From assembly GCF_003334255.1 (NCBI RefSeq), contig NZ_QOWU01000005.1: a stretch of 64,000 nucleotides of DNA. The stretch is one strand, 5' to 3'. Every line of letters starts with the position of its first letter. The first letter of the stretch is position 1. The notes under the pieces were generated by a model, which worked only from the letters and a program-made list of their open reading frames with translations, did not search any database and had not been told where the DNA came from. Of this stretch, positions 52,119-53,033 are shown one piece after another. Source of the DNA: Escherichia coli. Its GTDB lineage: Bacteria > Pseudomonadota > Gammaproteobacteria > Enterobacterales > Enterobacteriaceae. Made by a program: the position numbers and the translations under genes.

Positions 52119-52529
52119 TTAGATTTTAAGTTTGTCCTGGGCTACAACGACAGGTTTTCCGGATGTGTCGATGACTCCTACCGTCGGTACGCCATTTTTG
52201 ATTTCGAAGAACGGTTTGTTGCTACCTGAGCACAGTTGATTGTCCCCGTATTCAATCATTTGTGCTTTCCCGGTTTTCAGGTTAACTACCGAGACAGTGT
52301 AGTCGTAGCACCAGGCACCACCACGTTCAAGCACGAAAACATAGCTGTTATCTTTATAGTTGAACTGATTCTTTGTCTGGCAATTCATACCGTCAATTTC
52401 GGTACAGGAAAACGCTTCTGTAGTATTAACGTATTTGATGTTATTTGGCAGTTTTACTTGTTTCGCAGTAGCGAAGACAGAGAACAGAATAGTTACAGCA
52501 ACGAGTAAAGTTTTGATAAAAGTTTTCAT
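52119..52529 (-). CDS. small secreted protein of unknown function (four Cys)
   Basis: 136-aa ORF with signal peptide MKTFIKTLLVAVTILFSVFATA; no recognisable domain. Confidence 0.55.
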   Translation of the reverse strand: MKTFIKTLLVAVTILFSVFATAKQVKLPNNIKYVNTTEAFSCTEIDGMNCQTKNQFNYKDNSYVFVLERGGAWCYDYTVSVVNLKTGKAQMIEYGDNQLCSGSNKPFFEIKNGVPTVGVIDTSGKPVVVAQDKLKI

Positions 52530-52544
52530 GATAGACTCCTTAAA

Positions 52545-53033
52545 TTAGTTAACCGCAGCTACGTAGTTTTTCACCAGATACGCGAATTCATGCACGCCAA
52601 TTTCACCGAACCAAACCAGGTAGGCCGGGTCATCTAAACCAAAGTAACGGTAGCCAACAACTTCATGGGTTTTTGGGTTATAGAGTGTTACGATAAAGTC
52701 CCAGCCGCAGGTATTGGCTTTGCAACCGTCGCCCTGGAACCAGACTGTACCGTTAATGTTTACTGGCGTGATACCTCCACCAGGGCCATCCATATAGCCG
52801 CCTTTACCGAACATGCCGCTCAGTCCGACCGGTTTTAATGCTTTGTCGATAGCGGCTTTGTAGGTAGCGTCACCTTCGTACAACTCGTACGTTGATGGAC
52901 ACGCTCCAGGTTGTTCAGCCCAGGCTTCCGGGTTACAACTAAGAGCTTGTTTTACGGTAGCCGCTTCTGCGTTAAAGTTAAAGCGCGTGAACAGAACCGC
53001 CAGAAATAACATAAGGGTATGTAAACGTTTCAT
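52545..53033 (-). CDS. small secreted protein, possibly Ivy-like (lysozyme inhibitor fold); tentative
   Basis: ORF 52545..53336; likely start at 53033 (MKRLHTLMLFLAVLFTRFNFNAEA signal peptide); CKANTCG loop resembles the Ivy CKPHDCG motif. Confidence 0.45.
   Translation of the reverse strand: MKRLHTLMLFLAVLFTRFNFNAEAATVKQALSCNPEAWAEQPGACPSTYELYEGDATYKAAIDKALKPVGLSGMFGKGGYMDGPGGGITPVNINGTVWFQGDGCKANTCGWDFIVTLYNPKTHEVVGYRYFGLDDPAYLVWFGEIGVHEFAYLVKNYVAAVN

Follow-up and report, generated by a model that had tools for sequence, protein, structure and literature searches.

As sequence comparison shows, a genomic island of the CP4-44 type in Escherichia coli has captured a cassette of two genes for secreted proteins, here called B and C, from a probably early operon of SPN3US-related (phiKZ-like) jumbo phages, and the first of the two proteins is very probably a highly divergent member of the Ivy family of lysozyme inhibitors. 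The stretch of DNA analysed, hereafter the window, comprises 64,000 nucleotides of contig NZ_QOWU01000005.1, and the features that matter for the argument are as follows, in the direction of transcription.

53328-53344, minus strand: terminator-like hairpin directly past the patatin stop codon, with a 7-bp stem, five G-C pairs and a T-run
53282-53309, minus strand: copy of a jumbo-phage early-promoter-type motif (ATTGAAAATATTTTCATATATATATTAC), by match to the motif and alignment to the phage intergenic region
53034-53228, minus strand: in-frame 65-codon stump of a deleted gene, A, by homology to intact A and from the PGAP and Sakai annotation
52087-53040, minus strand: the B+C cassette of 0.95 kb, by blastn homology to jumbo-phage contigs
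52545-53033, minus strand: gene B, 162-aa secreted protein and probable divergent Ivy-family member, by open reading frame and profile homology
52962-53033, minus strand: predicted signal peptide of B, with cleavage between AEA and A, read from the sequence
52704-52724, minus strand: loop CKANTCG of B (residues 104-110), presumably disulfide-bridged, the equivalent of Ivy CKPHDCG by alignment to 1gpq/1uuz
52119-52529, minus strand: gene C, 136-aa secreted four-cysteine protein, by open reading frame and match to phrog_8968
51948-51977, minus strand: intrinsic terminator hairpin downstream of C, with a 13-bp stem, eight G-C pairs and TTTTTT

Genetic setting and gene models

The island adjoins sbcB-dacD-sbmC-yeeA and is named 'SpLE2' in O157:H7 Sakai. 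Along its minus strand, a YeeP-like GTPase is followed by a 798-aa dynamin, an RdcB/YjcZ-family protein, a patatin-like phospholipase, B and C, and then by DUF932, antirestriction, RadC, YeeT, CbeA and CbtA genes. A distance of 330 bp separates the end of the patatin gene, at 53364, from the ATG of B further downstream. As originally described, two minus-strand genes for 162 and 136 residues are present 15 bp apart, both with signal-peptide-like N-termini. Strain ECCRA-119 is 100% identical to the region over the 1.5 kb compared, while the Sakai pair, ECs_2799/ECs_2800, is 99.8% identical to the window. At a coverage of at least 80%, the pair was recovered from 2248 of 5426 complete E. coli genomes (41%), with an identity of at least 99% in 1453 of these, and it carries a 'hypothetical' annotation; our literature search found no paper on ECs2799 or ECs2800. 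B and C are real genes under purifying selection, with pairwise dN/dS ratios of 0.12-0.25 (0.14-0.25 for C) at dS 0.6-2.3 across alleles. At the edge of the island, a truncated cbtA toxin frame (87 aa, 48946-49209, minus strand; annotated as frameshifted in the identical strain) and a EutP/PduV-like fragment (47848-48204, minus strand) are signs of element decay.

The open frame of B extends upstream to 53228, and the RefSeq model consists of 227 aa (WP_040089227; ECs_2799 in Sakai), shown by homology to be a chimera. The sister islands L002-L007 retain gene A whole: downstream of patatin they encode this secreted protein of 180 aa and then a B homolog of 160 aa, and in one of them A occupies L003:7098-7640, flanked by patatin and B. 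The opening 65 codons of the 227-aa frame align with the N-terminal part of A (49% identity across 63 residues), and a deletion has therefore joined what is left of the 5' end of A to B without a change of frame. Among the phage copies described below, B begins with MKRLH directly past the stop of the preceding gene, and the window keeps B's own start and ribosome-binding site. If the internal signal is cleaved, initiation at 53033 and at 53228 should give the same mature protein.

Signal peptides were judged by the pattern of n-, h- and c-regions together with the AXA rule. The N-terminus of B, MKRLHTLMLFLAVLFTRFNFNAEA, continues with AT after the predicted cleavage, so that the mature protein would begin at about residue 25; the positively charged n-region, the hydrophobic core of 12 residues and the AEA site are conserved in all alleles, and the start and the Ala at -1 are kept in every island and phage allele. 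The C protein begins with MKTFIKTLLVAVTILFSVFATA, followed by KQ after the predicted cleavage, and a Shine-Dalgarno sequence, AAGGAG, is located 7 nt upstream of its start. Congruent with signal peptides, the N-terminal helices are of low confidence (low pLDDT) in the models of both proteins. By this rule B would share the Sec signal peptide and periplasmic location typical of the Ivy family, where its conserved cysteines C33, C45, C104 and C109 would be expected to pair as C33-C45 and, in the loop, C104-C109.

Relationship of gene B to the Ivy family

By itself, the B sequence returned no match in Pfam, NCBIfam, PADLOC, PHROGs or the PDB, and no direct hit to Pfam, including PF08816, even at E <=10. 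An exhaustive HMM search across 1.84 billion representatives nevertheless turned up some 30 remote relatives of full length, with E values from 2e-21 to 1e-3; common to them are four conserved cysteines and a loop of the form C[EKQ][AP]H[ND]C[GS]. The Pfam Ivy family PF08816 is matched by 20 of the 27 aligned members (E <=0.001), and a joint profile of the family retrieved from the PDB only the four Ivy sequences (1gpq at 1.5e-12; 1uuz at 3.3e-9), with 'CeahnCg' placed on 'CKPHDCG' residue by residue. Since the HMM relatives, their Pfam matches and the joint PDB profile agree, we consider B, with high confidence, a genuine and very divergent Ivy-family protein. The resemblance to Ivy that had first been noticed in the CKANTCG loop thus most probably reflects remote homology rather than a chance motif.

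The AlphaFold model of B, of moderate confidence with only 8 sequences in its alignment, is congruent with this assignment. It matches the Ivy fold, an antiparallel sheet flanked by helices, and not those of MliC/PliC, PliG or PliI, the original prediction having proposed a check against the Ivy, MliC and PliC folds; CKANTCG is placed between strands 96-103 and 112-119, in line with the flanking strands described earlier. The loop cysteine pair (C-x4-C, then G) is at the Ivy-equivalent position, and both cysteines are invariant in the 27 sequences. On the other hand, the position of the Ivy loop histidine is Asn in the window allele and N, H or D in the others (CKANACG, CKAHACG in P0014, CKSNACG and CKSDACG), while the more distant relatives mostly retain His. 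The window allele hence departs from the CKPHDC consensus at the very residue that contacts the active site: according to Abergel et al. in 2007, the loop histidine of Ivy (His60) reportedly inserts into the active site of lysozyme and contacts the catalytic residues.

Several members of the wider family have additional parts. Ivy-like domains are fused to a caspase-like C-terminal domain in P0119 (as judged by eye) and to a cysteine-rich domain of about 150 aa in P0088, P0089 and P0128, and carry N-terminal extensions in P0124 and P0126; P0088 is encoded in a CP4-type island (L010), where it adjoins DarT-Macro.

Jumbo-phage relatives of the cassette

Alignment by blastn to the phage contig L017 yielded 77.5% identity over 959 bp, corresponding exactly to 53040-52087, beyond which only the promoter motif has homology to this contig. 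The GC content of the cassette, 44.7%, is that of the phage locus (44.9%) as opposed to the 53-55% of the flanking island genes. Adjacent B-C pairs, 12-30 bp apart, were detected in metagenomic and IMG/VR contigs of 168-225 kb, with the closely matching pair residing in uncultivated SPN3US-related phages of 220-225 kb; searching 50,697 cultured phage genomes by tblastn with B (window and L027 alleles) gave no match, and the phage context is therefore taken from these contigs. Their gene order, YfjT, n128, B, C, n129, two more genes and an SMC-like protein, is syntenic with gp086-gp080 of Salmonella phage SPN3US, with 58% identity for the SMC protein, and the B-C pair sits within a run of genes for secreted proteins. 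No paper on Ivy homologs in jumbo phages was found in the literature.

The direction of the exchange is given by a sister island that carries A and B (L003), where a frameshifted remnant of the phage gene n128 lies directly upstream of B (E 1e-31). Conservation of n128 in SPN3US and in a Seoulvirus of Erwinia (51% identity) shows that the transfer went from phage to island. The two genes are separable, not obligately coupled: islands of this L003 (A-B) type carry B but lack C, and in SPN3US it is B that is missing and C that is present. In SPN3US the slot upstream of gp084 is taken by a C paralog, gp085; B must thus be dispensable for that phage type. Within the syntenic stretch from n128 to SMC, B is the most divergent gene (65% as against 77-93%), with two genes further upstream in the block, g184 and g383, varying as much as B or more. 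Island and phage alleles are moreover interleaved and the trees of B and C incongruent, pointing to repeated exchange.

The phage operon also carries YfjT-family genes (PF27224; L017:7106-7567 and L011:6598-7551). As yfjT is a gene of the K-12 island CP4-57, the phage operon has several small secreted proteins, at least two, in common with islands of the CP4 type. Gene A of the sister islands, the product of which is a 180-aa secreted protein with four cysteines, takes the slot of YfjT behind the same promoter-like motif; relatives of A were found in none of Pfam, PHROG and IMG/VR.

Just upstream of the operon, every phage locus, including those of SPN3US (upstream of gp086) and the Erwinia phage, has one copy of ATTAAAAATAATYTCAGATATATATTACYTAGGTGAGAG. 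This sequence contains TATATTAC, the early-promoter consensus of phiKZ (PMC7058600, table 2; PMC7598289), and resembles the early motif of 201phi2-1 (PMC7058600, table 2). In these phages, AT-rich motifs of this kind serve as early promoters for the virion RNA polymerase (PMC7598289), and the phage operon is thus probably expressed early. The conserved TCAGATATATATTACYTAGGTGAGAG motif, present upstream of the operon in all phage loci, is retained in the window; the copy at 53282-53309 deviates at 3 of 28 positions and is the single match in the window, with none in 100 shuffles, and it aligns with the phage intergenic region, having been inherited with the phage block. No promoter was detected ahead of the cassette in a scan for sigma-70 sites. 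A second exact TATATTAC is found at 60445 on the plus strand, lacking the surrounding extended phage motif and probably there by chance.

The motif lies just downstream of the hairpin at 53328-53344, which stands between the patatin operon and the cassette. At the other end, the dedicated terminator that had been ascribed to the gene pair is indeed a strong hairpin, 142 bp from the C stop codon, but it is placed in island backbone DNA, outside the phage-derived cassette, in a region that aligns with the A-B type island at 92%.

Gene C encodes a beta-rich protein with four conserved cysteines that, judging by its profile match, belongs to the phage family phrog_8968 (E 2.6e-45, residues 1-131 on profile positions 1-133 of 135); to SPN3US ACQ60_gp084 it is 37% identical (pairwise E 2e-17). 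Sequence searches of Pfam, NCBIfam, PADLOC and the PDB returned no match for C, nor did its model yield an informative fold match. Fold comparison gave no support for an inhibitor of the MliC/PliC, PliG or PliI type, and homology to the cysteine-rich domain that accompanies the Ivy-like domain of P0088, P0089 and P0128 was likewise rejected (hhalign probability 0.3%). C travels along with B as a second secreted protein, and its family is one of tandem paralogs confined to these jumbo phages.

Possible functions and relation to known systems

From the analogy to Ivy and to early phage inhibitors, we infer the following course of events. B would be exported by Sec, lose its signal peptide after AEA and be stabilised by two disulfides, C33-C45 and C104-C109, and would then, as Ivy does, most likely block an enzyme of the lysozyme or lytic-transglycosylase kind that cleaves peptidoglycan, by inserting the rigid CKANTCG loop into its active-site cleft. 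In the phage, presumably early in infection, B could in this manner neutralise murein-cleaving enzymes that are brought in by phages arriving later or have leaked into the periplasm, with superinfection exclusion or protection from lysis from without as the outcome; in the island, the same activity might render the bacterium resistant to such phages. That B inhibits some murein-cleaving enzyme is, in our judgement, slightly better than an even prospect, while a phage enzyme as the target appears doubtful. The overall proposal of a blocked phage enzyme, serving exclusion in the phage and resistance in the island, we put forward tentatively as the likeliest reading, at nearly an even chance.

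A precedent exists in Spackle of phage T4, an early protein of the periplasm that inhibits the tail lysozyme gp5 (PMC7650644, PMC7677548), and Ivy proteins inhibit lytic transglycosylases in vitro, according to Clarke 2010 as cited in PMC3660660 and PMC10139938. The exchange of the loop histidine for Asn in the window allele, however, speaks against B as an inhibitor. Moreover, the second Ivy paralog of P. aeruginosa shows no lysozyme inhibition in vitro (PMC5526577), and E. coli Ivy is only a weak inhibitor of lytic transglycosylases (PMC10139938). A broader version, in which islands have repeatedly captured an early-expressed periplasmic anti-muramidase module, Ivy-like protein plus phrog_8968, as an entry-blocking defence against the same virulent phiKZ-like phages, we regard as unlikely. 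If it were true, the interleaved phage and island alleles would be a record of a continuing arms race, and in the extreme case the retained promoter would let the virion RNA polymerase of the infecting phage switch the defence on.

Another use of the same fold would be the classical role of Ivy, with B shielding peptidoglycan when c-type lysozyme of animals gets through an impaired outer membrane, as an island-borne factor for host colonisation. The Ivy homology and predicted Ivy fold of B fit such a role, as does the potency of E. coli Ivy as an inhibitor of hen lysozyme (PMC2267010, PMC10139938). Likewise, the cassette is common in gut E. coli, O157:H7 Sakai included. Yet the loop differs from that of Ivy at 3 of 7 positions, with His replaced by Asn, and the source of the cassette is an early operon of jumbo phages of the virulent type, where a shield against animal lysozyme would be of little use. 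E. coli furthermore already possesses the lysozyme inhibitors Ivy, MliC and PliG. Taken together, we deem the classical role improbable, though it fares best among the alternatives to a block of phage murein-cleaving enzymes.

Slightly less probable still is a control of lysis timing or autolysis, by which B would hold back an exported transglycosylase or endolysin of the phage itself, or lytic transglycosylases of the host, until the right moment, with the copy in the island a leftover that dampens endogenous transglycosylase activity. A candidate partner is encoded about 7 kb downstream in the phage, a 237-aa transglycosylase with an SLT domain (L017:15380-16093) and an N-terminal hydrophobic segment that may be a signal or SAR anchor. 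Ivy proteins also inhibit MltB in vitro (PMC10139938), and Kanamaru et al. propose inhibition of free gp5 as the main role of Spackle (PMC7650644). However, phages of the SPN3US type manage without B, the SLT gene is far from B, with a shared transcription unit only putative, and nothing links B specifically to the SLT protein.

It could also be argued that the cassette is a functionless passenger, phage DNA in decay that does nothing for E. coli. Indeed, its neighbours A, by deletion, and n128, by frameshifts, are visibly decaying, C has been lost from the A-B type islands, and the sigma-70 scan came out empty. Against this, the low dN/dS ratios hold among the island alleles too, the frames are intact throughout the 2248 genomes, including the 1453 near-identical copies, and several diverged alleles have all been kept open; we accordingly rate this alternative lowest but one.

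The last alternative, the suggestion in the original prediction that B and C provide immunity for, or otherwise assist, the dynamin-RdcB-patatin operon next to them, is largely refuted and retains a negligible probability, despite the adjacency and shared orientation of the genes and a largely common distribution in E. coli (patatin in 2499 genomes, B-C in 2248). B-C pairs occur in jumbo phages that have neither dynamin nor patatin, and a B relative in another CP4-type island is accompanied by DarTG, with dynamin and patatin absent. Between two islands, the synonymous divergence of B is ten times that of patatin (dS 0.93 versus 0.10), and the terminator-like hairpin, the phage-like GC content and the sharp edges of homology all set the cassette apart. 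In Sakai, the dynamin gene is broken by IS629 while B-C is intact, and the operon proteins have no N-terminal signal-peptide pattern on reading their sequences, in contrast to the predicted export of B and C. The B-C pair is independent of the patatin operon.

The operon itself comprises three genes, for the dynamin, the RdcB/YjcZ-family protein and patatin, at 53364-57729 on the minus strand, with the GTPase at 57947-58858, and is found in about 46% of complete E. coli genomes. Its dynamin has a sub-threshold NCBIfam match to CrfC, and PADLOC returned weak matches only (LeoBC at 8.6e-5; phospholipase effector at 1e-4); it may represent an uncharacterised Eleos/dynamin-like system for defence or membrane remodelling.

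Aggregated, these findings assign a fold and a probable family to a 'hypothetical protein' of about 41% of complete E. coli genomes, O157:H7 Sakai among them, show the RefSeq gene model to be chimeric, and add a previously undetected Ivy paralog to a species with well-studied lysozyme inhibitors. They further show that jumbo-phage genomes encode an Ivy-type protein downstream of a sequence that matches the early promoters of these phages, which hints at a Spackle-like exclusion mechanism for phiKZ-like phages, and they document gene flow from this group, known as virulent, to a chromosomal island. Ivy-type proteins may thus act in conflicts between phages and between phage and host, beyond animal lysozyme.

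Compared with known systems, B is closest to Ivy (E. coli YkfE; P. aeruginosa Ivyp1/Ivyp2; PF08816; 1gpq, 1xs0, 1uuz), yet only 16-18% identical to it. Its loop has no histidine, CKANTCG in place of CKPHDCG, it has an extra N-terminal cysteine pair (C33, C45) and a C-terminal helix, and its carriers are jumbo phages and a mobile island, whereas Ivy is a core chromosomal gene. Among the 50,697 cultured phages, Escherichia phage PHB10 (57 kb) is the only one with an Ivy-like frame (MK524177.1 14594-14932; annotated as hypothetical), 40% identical to E. coli Ivy over 88% of the query (E 2e-22). MliC/PliC, PliG and PliI are, like B and C, small exported proteins of Gram-negative bacteria, but their folds are matched by neither model.

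The gp083-gp086 block of SPN3US likewise encodes small secreted proteins (phrog_8968, phrog_5248, phrog_9424), with the same gene order and upstream promoter motif and with C orthologous in position to gp084. It differs in having the C paralog gp085 where an Ivy-like gene would be expected; the Ivy-like gene of this block is found only in the uncultivated sister lineage and in E. coli islands. Finally, T4 Spackle (gp61.3), which is an early phage product exported to the periplasm to block a murein-cleaving enzyme (PMC7650644, PMC7677548), is proposed as the working analogy for B; the two have no relationship in sequence or structure, and the likeness would be one of function, not homology.
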